The notes under the pieces were generated by a model that saw nothing but the letters and a program-made list of their open reading frames with translations, did no database searches and was not told the DNA's origin. From IMG/VR virus record IMGVR_UViG_3300027861_000005: a stretch of DNA of 48,453 nucleotides. One strand, given 5' to 3'. The first letter of the stretch is position 1. Every line of letters begins with the position of its first letter. Source of the stretch: a virus. Below are positions 6,609-31,898 of this stretch, piece after piece. Made by a program: the position numbers and the translations under genes.

Positions 6609-8108
6609 TTAATTTGTAAGGTCTTCAGCCTTAGAGTTAGGTTGATCTTTTGCCGACGCTGGCTCAAGATCTGGATTTATTGAATCGATAAATGATTGAT
6701 CTGCTTTGATTGCAGCCATCGCATCTTCTACACTGTTCTTAACTAAACCGCTTCGTCGTAAATTTTCATGAACTCCAGAAAACGGTATAAGTCTTGCACC
6801 AAATAGTTCGATCAACCAACGAAGTTCTTCGGCGCTCATTGAAGTAAGATCAAAATTGTCATTTAACTCAACTTCGATTTCTTCATCCCCGGTGGTATCG
6901 ACGAATAAGGCGGCCTTCTTCAAACATGAGAGCAAAGCCGCTTCCAAGTTATCTTTAATGGTACTTAAAACAGATTTTTGGCTCGCTGCCTCAATCTGGA
7001 TCTCTGCTTCTTTCCGTTCAACAGTCTGCCGTGGATTGATGATTTTTGCACCAATTGCAATCATCTGTTCTTCCTTGTGGGTCATTGCTTCAAACGCGAG
7101 CGTATTTGGCATTGCCTGCAACAAGTGTGCTGTAGCGTCTTCGGGTAGCGGAACAGCGGCACGAGAACCGAAAGGTATTCCTTTCTGAAAATGATTGGTT
7201 ACCCAATCGTCGGTCAAACCTGCATACACAGGTGTTGGTTGACCGACAAGAAAAACACTTTCTTCGTAGTCGGCTGAATTGCGATAGTGTGCGATGTTCA
7301 AAACCGCCATTGAATACAACGGTGGTTCGTCAATCTCTGAATCGTTGTTTTCACTACCAACAAACTCAAATGGAATTTCACCCAGATTTTTACCGTCTTG
7401 CCCACACAGGTTGTAGGCTTCCTTGAGATCTCCACTTTCTTCATCCCACACTTCGACGCTTACACAACCATCTTCCAGCAGTCGATATACTCGATACTTG
7501 TGCGAGGTCTGTACTTTGAAACTGTCGTAACCCGAAGTATATTCATAAGCCTCTTTTAAAACCAACATAACCAACTTATGTTCGGTTTTAATTTTGGTAA
7601 TTTGCCAGTTAATAATAGCCCAAGGTGGGATAAATCGAATCGTCGGACGGATGCCACTTTCAACGTCGGCTTTAGTGACCTCCCCATCTGTTACGGGAAA
7701 GTCTGCGAGTAATCCACCACGACCGTAAGGTAGAATATGGTTGGCTGCTTTTCGAACCAACTGTTCGAAACTTAAACCTTCACCGTTGATATCTTCCAAC
7801 ATCATTTCCATGCTTTTTGGAACCTTCACTTTAGGTTCTCGAAGGAACAGTTGGCCGACTAAAGCATCTTGAGTAGGTTTAATCACGTTGTAGTAAACTG
7901 CTCGCATTTTGTAAGACGCATAACGCTCCAGTTTTTCTGTTTGACTGTCGCACGAAGACGGCATTGGCAGGTAAGTCACCCCTTTATCTTTAACTGCGAG
8001 TTCCCCTTCAAGCGAATCGCTAATAATGTTATATTTCTTTCTTGCTTGAACCAACTCTGGACGTTCGACGTTACATTTTAATGCTTTCGTAGTCATCAAT
8101 GTGCCCAA
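6609..8108 (-). CDS. Portal protein
   Basis: 499 aa, directly downstream of the large terminase gene and overlapping it by 13 nt. Confidence 0.8.
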   Translation of the reverse strand: MGTLMTTKALKCNVERPELVQARKKYNIISDSLEGELAVKDKGVTYLPMPSSCDSQTEKLERYASYKMRAVYYNVIKPTQDALVGQLFLREPKVKVPKSMEMMLEDINGEGLSFEQLVRKAANHILPYGRGGLLADFPVTDGEVTKADVESGIRPTIRFIPPWAIINWQITKIKTEHKLVMLVLKEAYEYTSGYDSFKVQTSHKYRVYRLLEDGCVSVEVWDEESGDLKEAYNLCGQDGKNLGEIPFEFVGSENNDSEIDEPPLYSMAVLNIAHYRNSADYEESVFLVGQPTPVYAGLTDDWVTNHFQKGIPFGSRAAVPLPEDATAHLLQAMPNTLAFEAMTHKEEQMIAIGAKIINPRQTVERKEAEIQIEAASQKSVLSTIKDNLEAALLSCLKKAALFVDTTGDEEIEVELNDNFDLTSMSAEELRWLIELFGARLIPFSGVHENLRRSGLVKNSVEDAMAAIKADQSFIDSINPDLEPASAKDQPNSKAEDLTN

Positions 8109-9787
8109 TTCATTTTGATTTTAGTGATGAACTTATTTGAACCCTTGAGAACGCGATATCTTACTGCGTCCCAAAGATGATCTTCTGCGTCTGTGTCAAC
8201 ATCATCTGGCTTATCTGGATCTCTCGGCAAGGGCGGTAGTAACTCAACACAGTGTTTACAATTCCGCATAAAGTAAATGCCCGGACCTTCCAGTAACGTA
8301 GAAGCCTGTAAACGGTCTCGCATTAATTGTAAACCAATTATTCTTGAACCCGCCGACTTATCAGACTGAATCCAACGAACACCTTCCTTTTCCATTTTGT
8401 ATTCAATGGTGTCAACATCAGATTCGGTCACGTTTCGAATTTGATTATCTGCCGGTCCCGCTTGAACCCTAGATTTAATCCACTGCTCGGAAAATAAAAC
8501 TTCCTCTTTCGATTTAATTCGCAAAGCAACATCTTTTGCCGACAATTTCAAACCTTTATTTGTATTCACATTCTCAGTGCCATAATCTTCCTCAATTGCA
8601 ATCAAACTTCCTCTAGGCGGGCACCAAGTTTTACCATTCGGCAATCTGACTTCTTCCCCGTTCGCTTCTGCCCAAAACACTGTCGCAAACGGATGCGTTG
8701 AGCCCCAGTCAAACGACCTGTCAACTTTCCATTCGACGGGAATTTGAAACCGATCAATAACATGAACACGGGTGTCCCAAACATCATTTATTGCACCGCC
8801 ACTATTGACGTCCCAACGTCCTTCAATCCACGCAGCATGTAAATTTGGATTGTTTGCGCAAGATTCGATGAGGCCCGCGCGGTACACAGGGTCAAGGTAC
8901 GGATTCTCAAAGAACGATCCAAAAATTGCAACTTGCGTTCTAATTACTTCAACTTCTTGGCCTGCCGACGTATCAAAATAGGTTACGCGGTTCTTTACAA
9001 TCTCTCCGTTCTTTGCAACATCGATAAATCTTCGTTTTACCCAATTGTGCCCCGGCCCATTTGGATTTGTGGTGGCGAAAACTTCCAGCGATATAGGCGG
9101 CAAGGGTTTTTGATCGGGAGTGTCGTAAACGGGTTGTCCGTTTTGCAAAATCGTAGGTGTATGTTTCTCTGAGACAAATGAGCAGCGATTTACTGACATA
9201 AACTTGTCATACAGTTCTGCGGTTGGTTGCTTCGTCAACTCATTCCAGCCAATAAACGGGTATTCATGCCCGTGAAACGCATCGTAATCATCCAATTTTT
9301 TAACATGCCTGAACAGCAATTCTTCACCTGTTGGCCACACCCATTTGTATGCTGTTGCAGATGCGTGAAACTTCGCGCCGTCTTCAAACTTTGGAAAGAA
9401 CCTATTGCTCTGTGCGACCATGTCTGACAGATTCTTAAATTCCCGGTCAAAGATGATGCCTTTCCAGTAAGCACCATAACCCAACCCAACCCTACTTCGA
9501 AACCGCATTAACTGCGTTATCGTTTTGCCCGGACCTCTGGCACCGTGCATCAGCGTGTGGTGGGCTCGCGTCACAATTGCGAATGATTGCGACGAATCTG
9601 GAATAGGTTCCCACACTACATTTGAAGCTATCGTTGATTCAACTTGGGGTTTCTTTACTGGTTTCAACACCTGTAAGGTTGAATCTTGGGCAGGTGCGTG
9701 CGCAGACAATCTATCAACAACAGCCGAGAGGTTGCCCGCCCCTGTTTGCTGTGGCGAATCTAAAATTTGTCCCCATTCTCTACCCAT
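8096..9787 (-). CDS. terL: Terminase large subunit
   Basis: 563 aa with Walker A GARGPGKT near the N-terminus, a C-terminal nuclease-like region (FDWGSTHPFA) and the expected gene order. Confidence 0.88.
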   Translation of the reverse strand: MGREWGQILDSPQQTGAGNLSAVVDRLSAHAPAQDSTLQVLKPVKKPQVESTIASNVVWEPIPDSSQSFAIVTRAHHTLMHGARGPGKTITQLMRFRSRVGLGYGAYWKGIIFDREFKNLSDMVAQSNRFFPKFEDGAKFHASATAYKWVWPTGEELLFRHVKKLDDYDAFHGHEYPFIGWNELTKQPTAELYDKFMSVNRCSFVSEKHTPTILQNGQPVYDTPDQKPLPPISLEVFATTNPNGPGHNWVKRRFIDVAKNGEIVKNRVTYFDTSAGQEVEVIRTQVAIFGSFFENPYLDPVYRAGLIESCANNPNLHAAWIEGRWDVNSGGAINDVWDTRVHVIDRFQIPVEWKVDRSFDWGSTHPFATVFWAEANGEEVRLPNGKTWCPPRGSLIAIEEDYGTENVNTNKGLKLSAKDVALRIKSKEEVLFSEQWIKSRVQAGPADNQIRNVTESDVDTIEYKMEKEGVRWIQSDKSAGSRIIGLQLMRDRLQASTLLEGPGIYFMRNCKHCVELLPPLPRDPDKPDDVDTDAEDHLWDAVRYRVLKGSNKFITKIKMNWAH

Positions 9788-10283
9788 TTGCGGCGGTCAA
9801 TTTCTCTTGTTGTCGGATCAAACCTTGCTCCCATTCTGCGTCAGATGCTTGCCCGCCTTGGGCGTTAATCATCACAGGAACATTCATGATTTTATTGTTG
9901 GTTTGGTTGTTCTGAATCAGAACACTTGGACCGGCTTTAGCTTTCGCCGTCATACCACGAACATCGAATGCCAAACCCATCAAACGGCAGTAAGTATCAT
10001 CGTCCAACGATGCTTCCGCGCGGTCCAGCACATCGCGAACCATTTCCGATTCGCTCGGTAAGAAAGCTTCTTCTCCCAGTTCTTCAACTAGGTGAGCCTT
10101 CATCTTGGCAATTTCGATTGATTGTAAACAAACATCCATCAAAGACAAAGCAGCAACAGTGTCCCCAAAGGTAACTTGCATTGCTGCTTTGAATGGATTA
10201 TTTGGTTGGCGTAATAACGCTTCCGCAAATCTCCATTTGATGGCTGTTTCTTGATCAATATTTGTAGATTCGGCAGACACCAT
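9780..10283 (-). CDS. terS: Putative terminase small subunit
   Basis: 167 aa overlapping the terL start by 8 nt. The N-terminal helical region WRFAEALLRQPNNPFKAAMQV is terS-like. Confidence 0.55.
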   Translation of the reverse strand: MVSAESTNIDQETAIKWRFAEALLRQPNNPFKAAMQVTFGDTVAALSLMDVCLQSIEIAKMKAHLVEELGEEAFLPSESEMVRDVLDRAEASLDDDTYCRLMGLAFDVRGMTAKAKAGPSVLIQNNQTNNKIMNVPVMINAQGGQASDAEWEQGLIRQQEKLTAANG

Positions 10284-10773
10284 CTTTGCAATTCGTGCGG
10301 GTTCGAGTTCGAGTTCGAGTTATGTTGCTACGGGTAGTGTAACTAACTGGCGACGAATGGGAATTGGAAATCTCGGTTACCTTGTTCGGGCAAGTCGGAT
10401 CAGTGCAATTGGGATTGCTACACGCCCTCAGTTTACCGTTGACGTATCTCGGTGTTCCAAGCTTCGTAGTTTTCGCCTTCACTACTTTAGCAGCCTCCGC
10501 AGATTTCGGATCGCATCCACATCCGAGTTCCGCACATTTCCCTTCCAACAACGCAACTCTTCGTTTAAGTTGTACGATGCTTGCTGCATTGCTTTCGATT
10601 GTTTGCCTATTCAACTCAACAGTTTCTTCCAGTGTGGGTATTGTTGTAACACCCAAACCCGAGTCCGCAGGATCTTCCGGGGATTTAGCAGGTGGAAGTT
10701 CGTCTTCAACAGCGTAAGCGATTGATGTAGTCGCTAACACTAAAGCAAACATAACTGCAAAAAACTTCATCAC
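10255..10773 (-). CDS. Secreted coiled-coil, Cys-rich protein
   Basis: Signal peptide MMKFFAVMFALVLATTSIAYA, then a coiled-coil segment and a Cys-rich C-terminus containing TRTRTRTRT. Confidence 0.7.
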   Translation of the reverse strand: MMKFFAVMFALVLATTSIAYAVEDELPPAKSPEDPADSGLGVTTIPTLEETVELNRQTIESNAASIVQLKRRVALLEGKCAELGCGCDPKSAEAAKVVKAKTTKLGTPRYVNGKLRACSNPNCTDPTCPNKVTEISNSHSSPVSYTTRSNITRTRTRTRTNCKDGVCRIYKY

Positions 10774-11637
10774 TCATTCTCCAATTCTGGTTTTAGATAC
10801 ATCGTTTGGATTAGTCAAAACAGACCTAACCCCGTAAAGACCGTGATAACGCATCGGGCTTGCAATGTGGCTAATAGTAAGAATGGTGTAACCACCATCA
10901 GCAAAATTCTTACCCCATGATTGCGGCGAAAGAATACCCAAATCTTCAACACCTTTTGGGTTCTGACTCAATTTTACAATGTCATCACCGCAAACAGCAT
11001 GATTGCCTCTTCCTTTGTCAAAGCCAGCTATTCGACCGGATCTCATGTAAGAGCTACCGACGTGGACAGCTAAGCCGACGACTCCCCGACCCGCAAGACA
11101 AGATAGAAGTGCCTGCCAACAAGTTTCGGGGTTATCTTTGGGCATTTGGTAGCATTCCCCCGCCCGTTGGTTCGCAGCGTCTTGAGTGGCGTACCTCAGT
11201 TTCTCCATCTGAATTTTATTTTTCTGGTAAGCGCCGTATGGAATTAAATCCTTTAAGCACAATCCTGTGTCACACATGAACTTCATACCGTCATCAAGCA
11301 TAGATCCTTGATCACGACCACCGTTAATGTGCATGTAAAGAAATTCCGGCGACACGTCAACCCATTTTCCTGTCGCATAGTAATTAGCTCGCATCCACAT
11401 TGCTGCTGCCATGTAAGCATTACAACTAGACCTTTTTCCTTGGTTAATAAGTTTGTCTTGTCCCCATCGCTGGCGAGCAAACACCCGTTTTGGATCATCA
11501 ATAATATCCAAAATTTCGTCCAGCGAACGAACAGCAGTTTCAGGGTAAGGTTTGAACGATACCGGAAAGGTCTCTGGTATTTGCATACCGGTGTAGACCT
11601 TTTCGCCGTTGTATTCAAATTCAAACTCATTCGCCAT
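10774..11637 (-). CDS. Papain-family (MEROPS C1) cysteine peptidase, a candidate lysin
   Basis: The catalytic signature is in papain order and spacing: NQGKRSSCNAYMAA (Gln, five residues, Cys), GNHAV (His) and QSWGKNFADGGY (compare NSWG..WG..GY). No signal peptide. Confidence 0.8.
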   Translation of the reverse strand: MANEFEFEYNGEKVYTGMQIPETFPVSFKPYPETAVRSLDEILDIIDDPKRVFARQRWGQDKLINQGKRSSCNAYMAAAMWMRANYYATGKWVDVSPEFLYMHINGGRDQGSMLDDGMKFMCDTGLCLKDLIPYGAYQKNKIQMEKLRYATQDAANQRAGECYQMPKDNPETCWQALLSCLAGRGVVGLAVHVGSSYMRSGRIAGFDKGRGNHAVCGDDIVKLSQNPKGVEDLGILSPQSWGKNFADGGYTILTISHIASPMRYHGLYGVRSVLTNPNDVSKTRIGE

Positions 11638-11638
11638 C

Positions 11639-12166
11639 TTACTTACCTTTAGACAAAATCATTTCTTTGATCTTATCAGTTGTCACCGATTCATCAAACG
11701 GAATTACAAACAACATTTTGCTATCCTTTCCGTACATGATGAAAGGGGGTTCCACGTTGTGTTTTTTAGCGGCAATGATGAATGATTCAACTTGTTCTGG
11801 GTTTGAACTAGGATCAAAACTGAAATACCGAATTTTCTTCTCTTCAAACCAATTCAACCAAAACGAATCGTCATTCAAAACCTTAATCATAGAAGGTGTT
11901 TGCAAATAAGCTTCCGTCTCATATACCCTAATGACGTAAGAATCGGCTAAATCAACCTTGATAACTTCGTCTTCGGAATCATCCGGCGGAACAACGTCGT
12001 CATCAATATAATCAATAATATCATTATTGTTAGGTTGTTTATTATTAACAACACTAAACAACAATCCTCCCGCAAGCAATACAACTAATACCCACACCCA
12101 AGGTGTGCGTTCGGTTGTTTCGGTGGGAACGACGGGTTCGTTGAACTGGTCATACGGTGATTTCAT
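11639..12166 (-). CDS. Type II (N-terminally anchored) membrane protein
   Basis: A single TM segment WVWVLVVLLAGGLLFSVV followed by an acidic linker and a globular domain. Confidence 0.7.
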   Translation of the reverse strand: MKSPYDQFNEPVVPTETTERTPWVWVLVVLLAGGLLFSVVNNKQPNNNDIIDYIDDDVVPPDDSEDEVIKVDLADSYVIRVYETEAYLQTPSMIKVLNDDSFWLNWFEEKKIRYFSFDPSSNPEQVESFIIAAKKHNVEPPFIMYGKDSKMLFVIPFDESVTTDKIKEMILSKGK

Positions 12167-12630
12167 AAGGTTGGCTCAACCGGTATCTTTCCGTCAGCAT
12201 CTGGATTTGAAATGTAACTACACCCGGCCAATTCCTCACAAAGCATCACAGTCAAATCGGCGTTTTTAGTGCTAATTGAATGAGCGATCAACTTCATCAC
12301 GTCAGAGGTAAATTGATCAGTTGTTGTGGTCTGAGACTTGGTAATAAAAGGACCAAGGATATCAATAATCATCTTTAGCCATTTGGATTTTGCAAAAACA
12401 CCGGAACCGATCAAGGCAGTGAGAAGGGCTAGGCCAACTTCTATAGCCTTCGAGACGATTTCGCTGGTAGTGAAACCCACAGCATCGGGCTTGAGAGTAG
12501 CGTTCAGGACTAGCGAGCCGGCGTCACCAAACATAAAGAAAATCAGCGATATTACAAAGCTGATTGAACCCGCACCAAACTTCAACAAACTCTTTAAATC
12601 ATTCATTGTTTTAATCCGTAACTTCATCAA
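12163..12630 (-). CDS. Membrane protein, holin candidate
   Basis: Two or three hydrophobic helices (ISFVISLIFFMFG, AIEVGLALLTALIGSGVF). The true start may be the ATG at 12606. Confidence 0.55.
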   Translation of the reverse strand: MMKLRIKTMNDLKSLLKFGAGSISFVISLIFFMFGDAGSLVLNATLKPDAVGFTTSEIVSKAIEVGLALLTALIGSGVFAKSKWLKMIIDILGPFITKSQTTTTDQFTSDVMKLIAHSISTKNADLTVMLCEELAGCSYISNPDADGKIPVEPTL

Positions 12631-13051
12631 CCAATGTTTTCAAAATTGCTGCTATGATTGGTGATGCAGGGGTGTATGTTGAAAGAACTGCCAATGCCGC
12701 GCTTGACGCAATTTTACACCCAAGGGGTATTAAAGATTCAAATCGTGTCACCCAAATCGATTTCTTGGCGGCTTCATCTTCAAGAACAATAGTTTCAGCA
12801 GGCGCTGCTTCCAAATCTTGTTCGGCTTCATTCATTGCAAGGGTAATCATATCGGCGGGTTTACCAAACTCGTCCTTGAGTTCAATAGAAGTCTCGTCCG
12901 GCCATTCCTTCCCCTGCATTAAACCAAATAATTCATCGCTTAGAGGTCTCAACTTATCGGCAACTGTAGCGTTGTTGAGTGTATTATGCCCAACTTGCCC
13001 TTGTGTGCCAATTGACCCAGACTGGTTTGTTTGATTGAAGGTATCACCCAT
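12611..13051 (-). CDS. Hypothetical protein with an N-terminal GTQGQVGHN motif and a hydrophobic C-terminus
   Basis: The ATG at 13051 overlaps the stop of the upstream gene (CATGGGTGA). I trimmed the ORF-track start to this ATG. Confidence 0.6.
   Translation of the reverse strand: MGDTFNQTNQSGSIGTQGQVGHNTLNNATVADKLRPLSDELFGLMQGKEWPDETSIELKDEFGKPADMITLAMNEAEQDLEAAPAETIVLEDEAAKKSIWVTRFESLIPLGCKIASSAALAVLSTYTPASPIIAAILKTLVDEVTD
12983..13011. repeat. 29-bp direct repeat, copy 1 (ATTATGCCCAACTTGCCCTTGTGTGCCAA)
   Basis: Identical to 13053-13081. Encodes GTQGQVGHN on the minus strand. Confidence 0.9.
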
Positions 13052-13433
13052 GATTATGCCCAACTTGCCCTTGTGTGCCAACACTTGGACCGGTATTCGT
13101 CTGCACATTTACGGTGTTAGCTGATTTGATAGCCCCTGTCAAGTCTCTTAAAACAGCTTCGACTTGTTGGACACTTCTTTTGTTTTCGCTGTTCCATTCT
13201 TTACGTTCGCTTGCATGTCGATTTTGAAGTTTTTCAGACATTGCCGCGTGATCAGAATGCAACTTTTCTAGGCTTTCTCTAGTCTGTTGACTCAAATGTC
13301 GATATAACTTAATTGAATTAAGTATAAACAAAAACAAAGTGAAAAACAAAAAAATAATTATCCCTGCTTCAAAGTAATGTGGGGGCGATTCTACAACAAC
13401 TTTTACCGGTTGAGTTGTTTCCGCCAACATCAC
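13044..13433 (-). CDS. Membrane-anchored coiled-coil protein ending in GTQGQVGHNHG
   Basis: TM segment GIIIFLFFTLFLFIL followed by a charged helical region. Confidence 0.65.
   Translation of the reverse strand: MMLAETTQPVKVVVESPPHYFEAGIIIFLFFTLFLFILNSIKLYRHLSQQTRESLEKLHSDHAAMSEKLQNRHASERKEWNSENKRSVQQVEAVLRDLTGAIKSANTVNVQTNTGPSVGTQGQVGHNHG
13053..13081. repeat. 29-bp direct repeat, copy 2
   Basis: Identical to 12983-13011. Confidence 0.9.
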
Positions 13434-14558: not shown

Positions 14559-14827
14559 TTTTCTTCTACCTTTCTTTTTGACAGTCGTAGTTGTTCCTCT
14601 GCGTGATCTATAAGTTGCCGCTCAATCCCTAACAATACTGCGTCACAATCTTCATAATCGACGTTAGCATCGATTAATGTGTTGAATACAACAAGCATGG
14701 AAGTTAACCCAGCGCGAAAAGCAAAGTCAATCGCTTGACTTTGTTCTTTACTAAGTTCTTTATTATTATAAACCTTACTTATGTACTTATTAATCATGTT
14801 TTCAACATTTAGTATTTTATTTGTCAC
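14555..14827 (-). CDS. Hypothetical protein
   Basis: 90-aa ORF with 4-nt overlaps on both sides. Confidence 0.6.
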   Translation of the reverse strand: MTNKILNVENMINKYISKVYNNKELSKEQSQAIDFAFRAGLTSMLVVFNTLIDANVDYEDCDAVLLGIERQLIDHAEEQLRLSKRKVEEN

Positions 14828-15129
14828 TTTGCCTTTATCCTGCCTTCTTTCTTATCGCTATAGTAGTACCTTTGTGAACCTTTCACAATGGCTTCCATGT
14901 GTTCGGGATTAACGCAGTCTAGGGATTTACAGGTACTAACTAATACCTGACTCTCAAGCAATGATTTATTACCAAGATGAGTCCATGCCCAACGTCGAGC
15001 GGACCATGATTTATACTTATAATTGAATATCCCAACCTTTTTTTGTATCGCACCTGTCCAAATCCAGCAACCGGTGTTCAAGTCTTTATTAATGTATTTA
15101 CAGAACCTTATCTTTGGTGATTTAATCAT
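14824..15129 (-). CDS. HNH_3-type nuclease-like protein
   Basis: GCWIWTG near the N-terminus and CKSLDCVNPEHM near the C-terminus, the usual signature of this family. Confidence 0.6.
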   Translation of the reverse strand: MIKSPKIRFCKYINKDLNTGCWIWTGAIQKKVGIFNYKYKSWSARRWAWTHLGNKSLLESQVLVSTCKSLDCVNPEHMEAIVKGSQRYYYSDKKEGRIKAK

Positions 15130-15489: not shown

Positions 15490-15840
15490 TTATATCCTGC
15501 TTTGGTACTGAGCGTTAAAGTCTCTTTGCCGCTTTAATCGCATCATGTAACGAAATAAAGGTACGAATCGCGGCCAATTGGTTAAGTCAAACGTATTACC
15601 TCCGTGAACCACACCCTTATGGCAAATAAAGCATAAAGTAACGCCGTTATGCAGTAGGTATGCTTGATCTGGAAACTTAGACTTGGGCTTTATGTGATGA
15701 ACCTCAAGCGGACCACCGACACGTCGGCACATTTGACAAGTGCCCGCATCGCGAAGGCGGCACGCCTTTGACCATTTTCGAAGTCGATAGGTGTTGAAGA
15801 TCACCATTGAGCTAAAATCTCGCCCCCGGAACGAGTACAA
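15490..15840 (-). CDS. HNH endonuclease
   Basis: CQMC...EVHHIKPKS...NGVTLCFICH is a canonical HNH motif. The start is uncertain (TTG at 15840 or an internal ATG). Confidence 0.8.
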   Translation of the reverse strand: MYSFRGRDFSSMVIFNTYRLRKWSKACRLRDAGTCQMCRRVGGPLEVHHIKPKSKFPDQAYLLHNGVTLCFICHKGVVHGGNTFDLTNWPRFVPLFRYMMRLKRQRDFNAQYQSRI

Positions 15841-31230: not shown

Positions 31231-31713
31231 ATGACCGGCACATTTCCAACAGCACCGACACCGCTCGCACCAACAGCAGCACCAACAGCCACACCAACTG
31301 AGAATATCGATTTGGTGATAGGCGAATGGTTTGCGGCATCCGAAGCACTCGCAGCAGCAAAGAAGACCGAAAAGGCTCTACGCGATCAGGTGAGCAATTC
31401 GCATTTGTGGAACGCTGCAAAAACAACCGGCACGCAAACCTATGACCTTGGCAAAGGTTATGAATTGAAGATGGCTCGCACTGAGACAGTGTCAGTCGCC
31501 AACAAAGAACATGAGGCAACTCATTGTATTATCAAGCTGCGCAACCTTGGCGAAGGGGCTACCGAACGAGCCAATCGATTGTTTACATTCTCTGCTAGAA
31601 TGAGTGAAGCGGTTTATAAGGAGTTAACCGCCGAAGAACGAATGATTGTCGATCCAATTATCACCCGTAAGCCGGGTAGCACCAGTATTAAACTCAAAGC
31701 ACCAAAGGAGTGA
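31231..31713 (+). CDS. Hypothetical protein, first gene of the recombination module
   Basis: 160 aa, with a Pro/Thr/Ala-rich N-terminus. Confidence 0.7.
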
Positions 31714-31715
31714 GT

Positions 31716-31898
31716 ATGCTAGTTTTGTCACGAAAGATTAACCAAAAAATTATAATTAACGATGACATTGTCGTTACAATAGTAAATATAAAAGGCGATC
31801 AAGTGAAACTTGGCATCAAAGCACCAAGTGACATTACTGTATATCGCGAAGAAGTTTATAAAGCGATCTTAAAGGAAATGGAGGACATAAATAAATGA
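31716..31898 (+). CDS. csrA: CsrA-family RNA-binding translational regulator
   Basis: [51 protein letters not shown] aligns along its whole length with E. coli CsrA [57 protein letters not shown] lies 5 nt upstream. Confidence 0.85.

Follow-up and report, generated by a model that had tools for sequence, protein, structure and literature searches.

The window analysed here, a phage genome of 48,453 nucleotides, carries next to its terminase genes a genuine but divergent cysteine peptidase of family C1 (papain-like), in the position where cultured relatives encode their endolysin. We consider it rather likely that this enzyme is a candidate endolysin-equivalent, acting outside the cytoplasm together with a thioredoxin-fold (Trx-fold) partner; judged from the sequences, this would probably be a new, protease-based route of host lysis by a phage. 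The coordinates given in the original prediction were all correct, on the minus strand. The gene order is TM protein, 146-aa protein, two-TM protein, Trx partner, peptidase and signal-peptide helical protein, followed by terS, terL, portal, scaffold and major capsid protein (MCP):

13044..13433, minus strand: first cassette gene, 129 aa; one TM helix at ~18-45 and a charged helical tail (hydropathy)
12611..13051, minus strand: cassette protein, 146 aa; soluble, with a C-terminal hydrophobic helix at ~119-137
12163..12630, minus strand: holin candidate, 155 aa; TM at ~14-38 and ~58-76, C-terminal tail (hydropathy)
11639..12166, minus strand: partner protein, 175 aa; N-terminal tail, TM/signal anchor at ~21-43, acidic linker, Trx-fold at ~70-175
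10774..11637, minus strand: divergent C1 (papain-like) cysteine peptidase, 287 aa, in the endolysin slot; catalytic Gln66, Cys72 and His213
10255..10773, minus strand: secreted or anchored protein in the Rz/Rz1 (spanin) slot, 172 aa; signal-like segment 1-23, helical middle, Cys-rich tail
9780..10283, minus strand: terminase small subunit (terS), phrog_5334, E=1.3e-13; downstream end of the cassette
8096..9787, minus strand: terminase large subunit (terL), phrog_2, E=1.3e-28; backbone marker used for finding relatives

The peptidase residues Gln66 and Cys72 were located by NQGKRSSCNAY, His213 by GNHAV and Trp241 by QSWGKNFADGGY. Its homologues form 112 clusters, and 383 representative clusters were found at E<=1e-30. 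The full C1 signature that had been claimed for this protein stands as regards Gln66, Cys72 and His213, which are invariant in the 112 (as are D109, G111, G211 and N212, with W241 present in 111), and does not stand at the position of papain Asn175, where the phage enzyme has Gln239 and the homologues vary (Q in 39, N in 39, G in 33). The Pfam search gave no match at E<=0.1, and PF00112 was not reached; the family profile compared with PDB, on the other hand, retrieved xylellain (3ois, E=4.9e-16 over residues 64-267) and C1A enzymes (1e-11 to 1e-7). The AF2 model (pLDDT 94.2, pTM 0.92) has an ordered N-terminal extension of ~60 aa, and its best Foldseek matches were procathepsin K/L, xylellain and papain-type enzymes, with the top 50 all of C1A type. 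Thus, when C1 was compared with CHAP and NlpC by profile and structure, the outcome was family C1; an identity as CHAP or NlpC/P60 is discarded, since Pfam returned neither and both profile and Foldseek lead to C1. A chance motif match is ruled out by the homologue clusters and the C1 profile matches. Neither the peptidase nor any of the 112 homologues has a hydrophobic N-terminus or signal peptide, as had been noted for the window enzyme, and the peptidase has no conserved disulfide cysteines and no wall-binding domain. In addition, at least 7 homologue clusters carry inteins directly before the catalytic Cys, as would suit an essential gene whose active site is constrained.

The large terminase of the window is 55-62% identical to TerL of cultured proteobacterial siphoviruses, with 59-62% for the cultured relatives that have a canonical lysis cassette before terS. 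In one of them, Xanthomonas phage Langgrundblatt1, the order is holin, holin, N-acetylmuramoyl-L-alanine amidase, Rz, Rz1, terS, terL, portal and, further on, MCP; in Paracoccus phage vB_PmaS-R3 an endolysin lies upstream of terS. Metagenomic TerL relatives carry two small TM ORFs ahead of terS, together with an Rz-like spanin and an endolysin of phrog_873. The peptidase therefore occupies the exact endolysin slot of cultured relatives with the same terS-terL-portal-scaffold-capsid backbone, and these canonical lysis cassettes reinforce the argument, made originally from the adjoining terS, that the gene lies in a lysis region. The close TerL relatives L043 and L044 have no peptidase and only unknown proteins before terS. 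The partner and the peptidase, with flanking small TM ORFs, were found before five different terminase types, after tail genes in L056 and L059, and between MuF and structural genes in L055. Of the whole cassette, only this pair is conserved throughout loci with peptidase identities of 28-76%; partner, peptidase and small TM ORFs behave as one mobile unit.

To look for classical wall hydrolases, all ORFs of at least 45 aa in the 48-kb genome, under a greedy non-overlapping call, were compared with Pfam and PHROG at E<=0.01. No lysozyme, transglycosylase, amidase, CHAP or NlpC/P60 domain was found among them, in agreement with the reported absence of a classical endolysin. Structure-level screening of the window covered two proteins, and ~35 ORFs have no family assignment.

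The partner had been described only as a TM-anchored protein; its Trx fold was overlooked in the original prediction, as was the 146-aa ORF at 13051..12611. The AF2 model gives residues 70-175 a pLDDT >90, in the order beta-alpha-beta-alpha-beta-beta-alpha, and the top 50 Foldseek matches in PDB were all of thioredoxin fold, nearly all of them thioredoxins proper. The protein has neither a CxxC motif nor catalytic cysteines. From its positive n-region and the h-region behind it, joined in one subclade by a lipobox-like QGC, the Trx domain is predicted to be periplasmic and membrane-tethered. Wherever sequence upstream of the peptidase is available, the partner gene directly precedes it, and P0259, P0271 and P0268 are fusions of the two; in P0259 and P0271 the single chain consists of a signal peptide or TM, the Trx-like domain and the peptidase. 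By its sequence distribution, then, the partner appears to be an obligate companion of the peptidase. Furthermore, the peptidase homologues P0155, P0242, P0245 and P0258 carry a C-terminal Trx-fold domain with CxxC, and in locus L012 the downstream neighbour is a TM-anchored CAPC thioredoxin; a profile built from these domains and the L012 neighbour matched thiol-disulfide oxidoreductases only. The gene that follows in L033 codes for a trypsin-like peptidase that is secreted (PF13365, E=3e-11). The fusions behind a signal peptide, the CxxC domains and the CAPC neighbour all argue for action outside the cytoplasm, since a dedicated thiol-redox module suits the oxidising periplasm and not the cytoplasm.

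With respect to the other cassette genes, hydropathy gave the membrane segments that had been announced: one TM each in the 13044-13433 and 11639-12166 products, two in the holin-like protein at 12163-12630 (2-3 in the earlier reading) and the signal-like segment of the 10255-10773 product. The 129-aa protein, which may be holin or antiholin-like, is 43% identical to its L021 counterpart and gave only chance-level matches in Pfam and PADLOC searches. The 146-aa protein has homologues of 146-150 aa in L021 and L024; its translation probably begins with MGDTFNQ, at 13051 and not at the listed 13108, because the L021 homologue also has 146 aa. The holin candidate, whose stop overlaps the start of the partner gene, is kept in L021 and L023 (39-46% identity), matched no family in Pfam, PHROG or PADLOC, and stands in a position equivalent to the Langgrundblatt1 holin. 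The 10773..10255 product has 8 Cys in its tail, and its gene shares 29 nt with the beginning of terS. This slot is that of Rz/Rz1 in Langgrundblatt1, whose small terminase shares 30% identity with the window terS; the corresponding proteins of L003, L007 and L024 start with a TM segment or signal peptide and matched coiled coils weakly. An embedded lipobox ORF was looked for in this gene and none was found.

Full-length peptidase matches in species-representative genomes were in Planctomycetota in 7 of 9 cases, mostly Pirellulaceae; these seven include two complete chromosomes, as well as a contig of 207 kb in which bacterial sequence flanks the locus. The peptidase is also present in L010 (Kapaibacterium) and L011 (Pseudobdellovibrionaceae), and some MAG assignments of the homologues could be binning errors. 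The relatives in Planctomycetota/Pirellulaceae prophages lend independent support to the earlier suggestion that the host could be unusual and its wall proteinaceous. Solely from these relatives of the lysis module, we infer that the phage host may be a planctomycete similar to Pirellulaceae. In its backbone the genome most resembles siphoviruses of Proteobacteria, which is at odds with such a host. Planctomycete walls are reported to be dominated by protein, with Cys-rich YTV proteins (PMC12673574), and some peptidoglycan is present in Planctomycetes (PMC4432640), so that lysis may require more than a protease.

According to the mechanism that we propose, the peptidase would be made in the cytoplasm, having neither signal peptide nor structural disulfides, and late in infection the small membrane proteins 12630..12163 and 13433..13044 would act as holins and release it across the inner membrane. 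In the periplasm it would meet the membrane-tethered, CxxC-less partner, which, as a guess, docks, activates or restrains it. The peptidase would then cleave peptide bonds of the host wall, most likely in a disulfide-rich protein layer of a planctomycete or, alternatively, in peptidoglycan stem peptides, while the Cys-rich helical protein 10773..10255 would fill the spanin role.

The enzyme could also be the main lysin of an ordinary host wall, with the C1 scaffold converted into an endopeptidase or amidase that attacks stem peptides or cross-links of peptidoglycan, in the manner of CHAP or NlpC/P60 domains. Papain-fold domains such as CHAP, NlpC/P60 and Amidase_5 are common in endolysins (PMC10318531), and planctomycetes do have peptidoglycan. 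The slot holds an amidase in Langgrundblatt1, and BFVD contains phage proteins of C1-like fold with wall-associated names ('Peptidoglycan binding-like' A0A6J5MXS7 and 'N acetylmuramidase' A0A8S5PQA2). However, the profile and fold matches are true C1 proteases and not CHAP or NlpC, we know of no C1 enzyme that cleaves peptidoglycan and of no member that cleaves D-amino-acid or iso-peptide bonds, and the recurrent Trx-fold/CxxC association and the trypsin-like neighbour point to protein, disulfide-rich substrates, so this reading appears unlikely. It seems quite doubtful, too, that the peptidase plays an accessory role in the envelope, as mycobacteriophage LysB does on an additional layer, or processes holin- or spanin-like proteins, with the true peptidoglycan hydrolase among the unannotated ORFs: no neighbour looks like an enzyme in its size or conservation, only the partner-peptidase pair is conserved, and no hydrolase Pfam families were recorded within 8-10 kb of the peptidase gene in L001, L003, L053, L055, L056 and L059. 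In its favour, the ORFs without family could include a muramidase or amidase that is new or has diverged strongly, the 146-aa and 129-aa proteins have no assigned role, and L043 and L044 indicate that unknown lysis proteins exist in the lineage.

A cytoplasmic protease unrelated to lysis, serving host takeover, anti-defence or lysogenic conversion as a 'moron' near the packaging genes, would agree with the lack of signal peptides in the homologues, and morons are frequent beside lysis and terminase genes. This is very improbable considering the translational coupling to an exported partner, the fusion of both behind a signal peptide in P0259 and the small TM proteins that always accompany the peptidase; moreover, it matched no PADLOC defence family, and the genome is apparently non-temperate, because no integrase was seen among its ORFs. 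As for capsid or virion maturation, the L055 gene has portal/MuF on one side and other structural genes on the other, and the window head module has a scaffold and no recognised protease. Nevertheless, the L055 gene is still inside its own TM-protein cassette, that of the window is outside the head module, L003 encodes its own S49 head protease and, to our knowledge, there are no prohead proteases of C1 type, which makes this role extremely improbable.

Among known systems, xylellain of Xylella fastidiosa (PDB 3OIS, MEROPS C1) was the best profile match and a top fold match. It shares with the phage peptidase the QG..SC, GxHAV and NSWG motifs, the absence of a classic I29 prodomain and a short N-terminal region, aligned over the full length, but it is a chromosomal bacterial enzyme that retains the triad Asn, and identity is ~17-19%. 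We know of no lysis role for xylellain and of no adjacent Trx-fold partner. The CHAP and NlpC/P60 endolysin domains (clan CA) have the same papain-like Cys-His core and are phage wall cutters of holin-endolysin cassettes (PMC10318531). They belong to other families, however, are smaller, and cut amide or iso-peptide bonds of peptidoglycan, usually fused to wall-binding domains. The lambdoid-type cassette (holin, endolysin and Rz/Rz1, as in Langgrundblatt1) coincides in slot, gene order and membrane-protein context before terS-terL-portal, and differs in its amidase or other endolysin, its recognisable Rz/Rz1 spanins and the absence of a Trx-fold partner.

Papain-type proteases that depend on, or are restrained by, a dedicated small protein or thiol-redox helper, co-encoded or co-located, are exemplified by lysosomal cathepsins with the thiol reductase GILT and by the staphopain-staphostatin operons. 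GILT and staphostatin may be taken only as analogies to the partner, and the phage protein has no redox cysteines. Baculovirus V-CATH, with ChiA, is a viral papain-family protease (a C1A cathepsin) that dissolves host barriers at the end of infection, so that progeny are released, with a co-operating second gene product (PMC9965964), and baculovirus cathepsins are among the BFVD fold matches of the peptidase. Unlike the phage enzyme, V-CATH comes from a virus of eukaryotes, is secreted as a proenzyme, has disulfides and a classic prodomain, is paired with a chitinase and targets insect tissue, not a bacterial wall. PeiW/PeiP, the pseudomurein endoisopeptidases of methanogen viruses, are cysteine peptidases, and mycobacteriophage LysB is an esterase directed at the mycolyl layer. 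They are of other folds and families and have no Trx-fold partner, and they set the precedent of phage lysins for non-standard walls (PMC10318531, PMC13578437).

The original prediction that the gene in question encodes a C1 peptidase was borne out, although the single sequence gave little sign of it: the protein fell below the gathering score of Pfam Peptidase_C1 (PF00112), with no match at E<=0.1, and a search of Pfam and PHROGs with it alone gave no Pfam match and only phrog_16701 "peptidase" at E=0.05. The PDB search with the single sequence was likewise marginal (E ~0.03). The best match of the family profile (A1), built from 30 of the 112 homologue clusters, was xylellain (3OIS; E=4.9e-16); C1A enzymes from plants and animals followed at E=1e-11 to 1e-7, among them castor bean endopeptidase, EP-B2, cathepsins K and L and actinidin (E=1e-11 to 1e-9); altogether, 146 PDB sequences matched it at E<=0.01. 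About one third of the homologues carry a precomputed PF00112 match, and several distant relatives pass its cut-off of 20.7 bits (L014, 41.1; P0061, 27.1; P0268, 29.7; P0245, 28.7). The AF2 model of the peptidase (pLDDT 94.2, pTM 0.92) pointed in the same direction, since its best 50 Foldseek matches in the PDB were all C1A-type (E ~1e-11 to 1e-9, target-normalised TM up to 0.74). The comparison of C1 with the CHAP and NlpC/P60 families by HMM and structure favoured C1: neither CHAP (PF05257) nor NlpC/P60 (PF00877) was matched by the peptidase in Pfam, and both were absent from the best 50 Foldseek matches.

The catalytic signature, previously read as complete, stood in three of its four positions. 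Gln66, Cys72 and His213 correspond in order to the oxyanion Gln19, Cys25 and His159 of papain and are invariant in all 112 homologues, and Trp241 is kept in 111 of them. The position of papain Asn175 (NSWG motif) is occupied by Gln239 (QSWG), and this column is variable among the homologues (Q in 39, N in 39, G in 33). Papain N175Q retains most of its activity, so that Gln239 is no argument for inactivity. The hallmarks of secreted C1A enzymes, namely a signal peptide, an I29-type prodomain and conserved disulfides, were not found. As had been noted from the single sequence, there is no signal peptide, a hydrophobic N-terminus being present in none of the 112 homologues, and Cys72 is the only conserved cysteine. 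Pfam gave no I29 match in the peptidase, which has instead an ordered N-terminal extension of 60 residues. The full-length Foldseek alignments were those to proenzymes and xylellain, and on this basis the extension may be a propeptide that blocks the cleft. Sequence, predicted structure and conservation argue that the peptidase genuinely belongs to family C1 as a divergent member, distinct from CHAP and NlpC/P60 domains and made to fold in the cytoplasm.

Another aspect to mention is the presence of inteins in at least seven homologues (P0134, P0147, P0157, P0161, P0195, P0223 and P0191), whose insertion point lies precisely between Ser71 and the catalytic Cys72. The site corresponds to residues 71/72 of the peptidase (approximately nt 11422-11427 of the window), with junctions of the type RSS/CFLAGT...GVHN/CNAF, so that the catalytic cysteine is also the +1 extein nucleophile. 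The first six of these proteins have about 650-670 aa and P0191 has 461 aa; five of the seven carry an insert of LAGLIDADG size. Hint and intein-splicing Pfam matches were obtained in these homologues, with a LAGLIDADG match in P0147. We know of no report of inteins in lysis enzymes, and an intein placed on the catalytic cysteine could be of use in conditional protease activation.

The peptidase gene belongs to a cassette of minus-strand ORFs that precedes the packaging genes:

13433..13044 (-), cassette ORF 1, 129 aa with one TM helix
13051..12611 (-), cassette ORF 2, 146 aa
12630..12163 (-), holin candidate, 155 aa with two TM helices
12166..11639 (-), partner, a protein with a predicted thioredoxin (Trx) fold, 175 aa with one N-terminal TM helix
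11637..10774 (-), peptidase, 287 aa
10773..10255 (-), downstream cassette ORF, 172 aa with an N-terminal signal-like segment and eight Cys
after the 10773..10255 ORF, terS (phrog_5334), then terL, portal, scaffold and major head protein

The start of cassette ORF 2 listed at 13108 is probably too far upstream, judging from the 146-aa homologue in locus L021. The window amounts to a nearly complete genome of siphovirus type. An identical peptidase is encoded on a 48,469-bp contig, and TM proteins flank the peptidase gene in the window and in most of the related loci.

The position upstream of terS, proposed as that of lysis genes, holds an amidase or endolysin in the cultured relatives. The window TerL is 55-62% identical to those of cultured Proteobacteria siphoviruses, and these phages share homologous terS, terL, portal, scaffold and adaptor genes with the window. 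In the Xanthomonas phage Langgrundblatt1, a putative holin, a holin, an N-acetylmuramoyl-L-alanine amidase, Rz and Rz1 are annotated before terS-terL-portal, and the Paracoccus phage vB_PmaS-R3 has an endolysin in the same place. Metagenomic relatives with about 50% TerL identity carry before terS an Rz-like spanin (phrog_312/DUF2514), a phrog_873 endolysin and two small TM ORFs. Compared with these relatives, the window keeps the backbone, and the peptidase takes the place of the enzyme.

In agreement with the earlier reading that a classical endolysin is absent, the scan of the window ORFs against PHROGs and Pfam, singly or as concatenates, recognised structural, packaging and replication genes and gave no match at E<=0.01 to lysozyme, transglycosylase, amidase, CHAP, NlpC/P60 or M15/M23 domains in any ORF, including the tape measure and the tail proteins; about 35 ORFs have no family assignment at this level, and a novel hydrolase may lie among them. 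The peptidase lies where an endolysin is expected, beside candidate genes of holin and spanin type, and neither it nor any other window ORF carries a peptidoglycan-hydrolase domain recognised by Pfam or PHROG. No convincing case of an Rz1-type lipoprotein with a lipobox, encoded within another ORF, emerged from a search of the 9.7-13.6 kb region. PADLOC gave a single chance-level match for the six cassette proteins and otherwise no defence-system match. Two close TerL relatives (L043 and L044, 71-74% identity) are devoid of the peptidase module. Before terS, L043 encodes a 303-aa protein with a weak cytochrome-c-like match (361-1272), and L044 two proteins, one of 256 aa with a TM segment and one of 350 aa (268-2090); these proteins have no assigned function and provide no evidence of replacement. 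They are candidates for further, unrecognised lysis proteins.

Several other features of the genome were observed. The 29-nt sequence TTGGCACACAAGGGCAAGTTGGGCATAAT (minus strand) is repeated directly and without mismatch, in exactly two copies in the window (12983-13011 and 13053-13081, 70 nt apart) that straddle the end of cassette ORF 1 and the start of cassette ORF 2. Each copy encodes GTQGQVGHN in the frame of its own gene and, as 70 = 3n+1, a recombination event from one copy to the other would join both ORFs in frame. Each also fits a sigma-70-like TTGGCA-17-CATAAT pattern in 10 of 12 positions; promoter-like counts in the cassette were at shuffle level (12 vs 9.6) and terminator-like counts about 2 SD above it (9 vs 4.5 +/- 2.1), the scan giving nothing interpretable beyond the repeat itself. 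Two HNH endonuclease genes lie just upstream of the cassette (14824-15129 and 15490-15840, minus strand; PHROG E ~1e-10 to 1e-11), and a gene for a CsrA-like post-transcriptional regulator (31710-31898, plus strand; PF02599, E=3e-23) is conserved in a related 48-kb contig (L053:1070-1246). The major tail tube gene was not among the ORFs called; by synteny with L053, where Phage_tube_2 follows a terminator, it probably spans the window ends on the minus strand (1-1355/48297-48453), and the plus-strand ORF 293-1000 is probably spurious. In close relatives TerL has 859 aa compared with 563 aa (L053:9291-11870; L023:5574-8153), and in L054 the terminase is split into 159 and 668 aa (9149-9628 plus 9721-11727), which suggests that an element, an intein or a homing endonuclease, is inserted in these terminase genes.

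The partner and the peptidase, with small TM proteins on their flanks, are found before terminases of several unrelated types (GpA, phrog_9, phrog_38, phrog_675 and phrog_2), after tail genes (L056 and L059) and, in L055, between MuF and structural genes, still ringed by 2-TM and 3-TM proteins. Because the cassette moves as a unit, as lysis cassettes do, a head protease or a moron is a disfavoured explanation. A prohead protease in particular is very unlikely: the gene lies outside the head module of the window, whose genes are contiguous without it, and the enzyme is of a family other than the S49, S78 and U9 types.

Homologues of the partner are encoded immediately upstream of the peptidase in every related locus that includes the region upstream, even where peptidase identity is as low as about 28%, and the stop and start codons of both genes often overlap; an HMM search of all ORFs identified the partner genes in L001, L008, L011 and L012. 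In the AF2 model, the C-terminal 105 residues (pLDDT >90) are predicted to adopt a beta-alpha-beta-alpha-beta-beta-alpha order, and the best 50 Foldseek matches in the PDB were all of thioredoxin fold, nearly all of them thioredoxins proper. The modelled domain can thus be assigned to this fold, and the conserved Pro141, in the region expected for the cis-Pro loop, is a candidate cis-Pro. A redox CxxC is missing, as the partner has no cysteine and its family no conserved one. The N-terminus has a short positive n-region and then a hydrophobic segment, followed in one subclade by a lipobox-like "QGC", which indicates an exported, membrane-tethered domain.

In some homologues these elements are joined in one chain. 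P0259 (556 aa), P0271 and P0268 consist of a signal peptide or TM segment, a Pro-rich linker, a partner-type Trx domain and the peptidase; the gene for P0259 follows tail genes in a contig of 174 kb, with a TM protein encoded on one side of it and a two-TM protein of 75 aa on the other. In P0155, P0242, P0245 and P0258 the peptidase continues at its C-terminus into a domain of about 80 aa that contains CGYC, CMWC, CSWC or CGWC and a "VPRF" loop. Next after the peptidase in the Pirellulaceae chromosome OZ244209 (L012:10807-11361) there is a TM-anchored CAPC thioredoxin-like protein, and a profile of this neighbour and the four C-terminal domains matched only thiol-disulfide oxidoreductases in the PDB. 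In the viral record IMGVR_UViG_3300006923_000113 (L033:6010-6702) the next gene encodes a secreted trypsin-like serine peptidase (PF13365, E=3e-11) with an N-terminal TM or signal peptide, so this cassette holds two different proteases. The Trx fusions, the CxxC neighbours and the trypsin-like neighbour argue that the peptidase acts outside the cytoplasm and that thiol/disulfide chemistry matters for its job.

As regards the host, a scan of one genome per prokaryotic species gave nine loci with near full-length relatives: six in Pirellulaceae (including Aureliella) and one each in Planctomycetaceae, Kapaibacterium and Pseudobdellovibrionaceae, with weaker matches in Limnoglobus and in one further Planctomycetota MAG. 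Two complete chromosomes are among the Pirellulaceae examples, as is a 207-kb contig in which the phage genes directly adjoin those for GntR and an M16 peptidase. Searches by tblastn with the peptidase and the distant member P0084 found no cultured phage among 50,697 GenBank phage records, the sole match being an unannotated 595-kb uncultured huge phage. Given 383 clusters at E<=1e-30 and none in cultured phages of these records, the family is a marker for a considerable number of uncultured viruses and could aid host assignment. The window yielded no tRNA genes and no other host marker, and its GC content (0.44 vs 0.42-0.68 in the planctomycete loci) is uninformative. We infer a planctomycete host, while the backbone resembles that of proteobacterial phages. 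For a long time planctomycete walls were described as proteinaceous, with Cys-rich YTV proteins, and some peptidoglycan is present too (PMC12673574, PMC4432640).

Taken together, an enzyme of C1 fold, its Cys-His-Gln core intact, occupies the endolysin slot beside an obligate Trx-fold partner that is predicted to be exported; secreted fusions of the two occur, and the family is associated with planctomycetes. We consider it rather probable that the peptidase serves as the lysin. It would build up in the cytoplasm, possibly kept latent by its ordered N-terminal 60 residues, until the holin candidates let it out to the periplasm, where the tethered partner would dock to it, activate it or restrain it. 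It would then cut peptide bonds of the wall, most plausibly in a disulfide-rich protein layer or alternatively in peptidoglycan stems, with the downstream secreted, helical, Cys-rich protein standing in for Rz/Rz1. If the peptidase is a lysin, a protein substrate is more likely than peptidoglycan.

A wider proposal, which we put forward tentatively and hold to be rather unlikely as a whole, is that phages of Planctomycetes, and perhaps of a few other lineages, lyse their hosts by a two-component "proteolysin" and not by peptidoglycan hydrolysis: a papain-family protease guided or activated by its exported Trx-fold partner would dismantle a disulfide-cross-linked protein wall, some variants adding a CxxC thiol reductase or a second serine protease. 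If this were true, the protein layer and not the thin peptidoglycan would be the barrier that the phage must breach. In the role of a lysin, the enzyme would also be a natural reagent for the dispute on the planctomycete envelope, between the historic protein wall and the peptidoglycan found in 2015.

To our knowledge, established endolysins are all peptidoglycan hydrolases; a C1 protease with an obligate Trx-fold partner acting as lysin would add to phage lysis a new enzymatic class and a two-component logic. Names such as "Peptidase C1A [uncultured Caudovirales phage]" are already in use in databases, and our literature search found no prior description of a C1/papain-like endolysin, of lysis by planctomycete phages or of lysis cassettes that include a Trx-fold partner. 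We regard the system as a holin-lysin cassette in which both the enzyme family and the two-component arrangement are new. The closest solved relative of the peptidase is xylellain. Its closest functional analogues are the CHAP and NlpC/P60 endolysins, which belong to the same clan but to families other than C1, and PeiW/PeiP and LysB are analogous as lysins for atypical walls. Among viral enzymes, V-CATH of baculoviruses is a functional analogue as well, being a C1A protease that dissolves the host together with a helper (PMC9965964).
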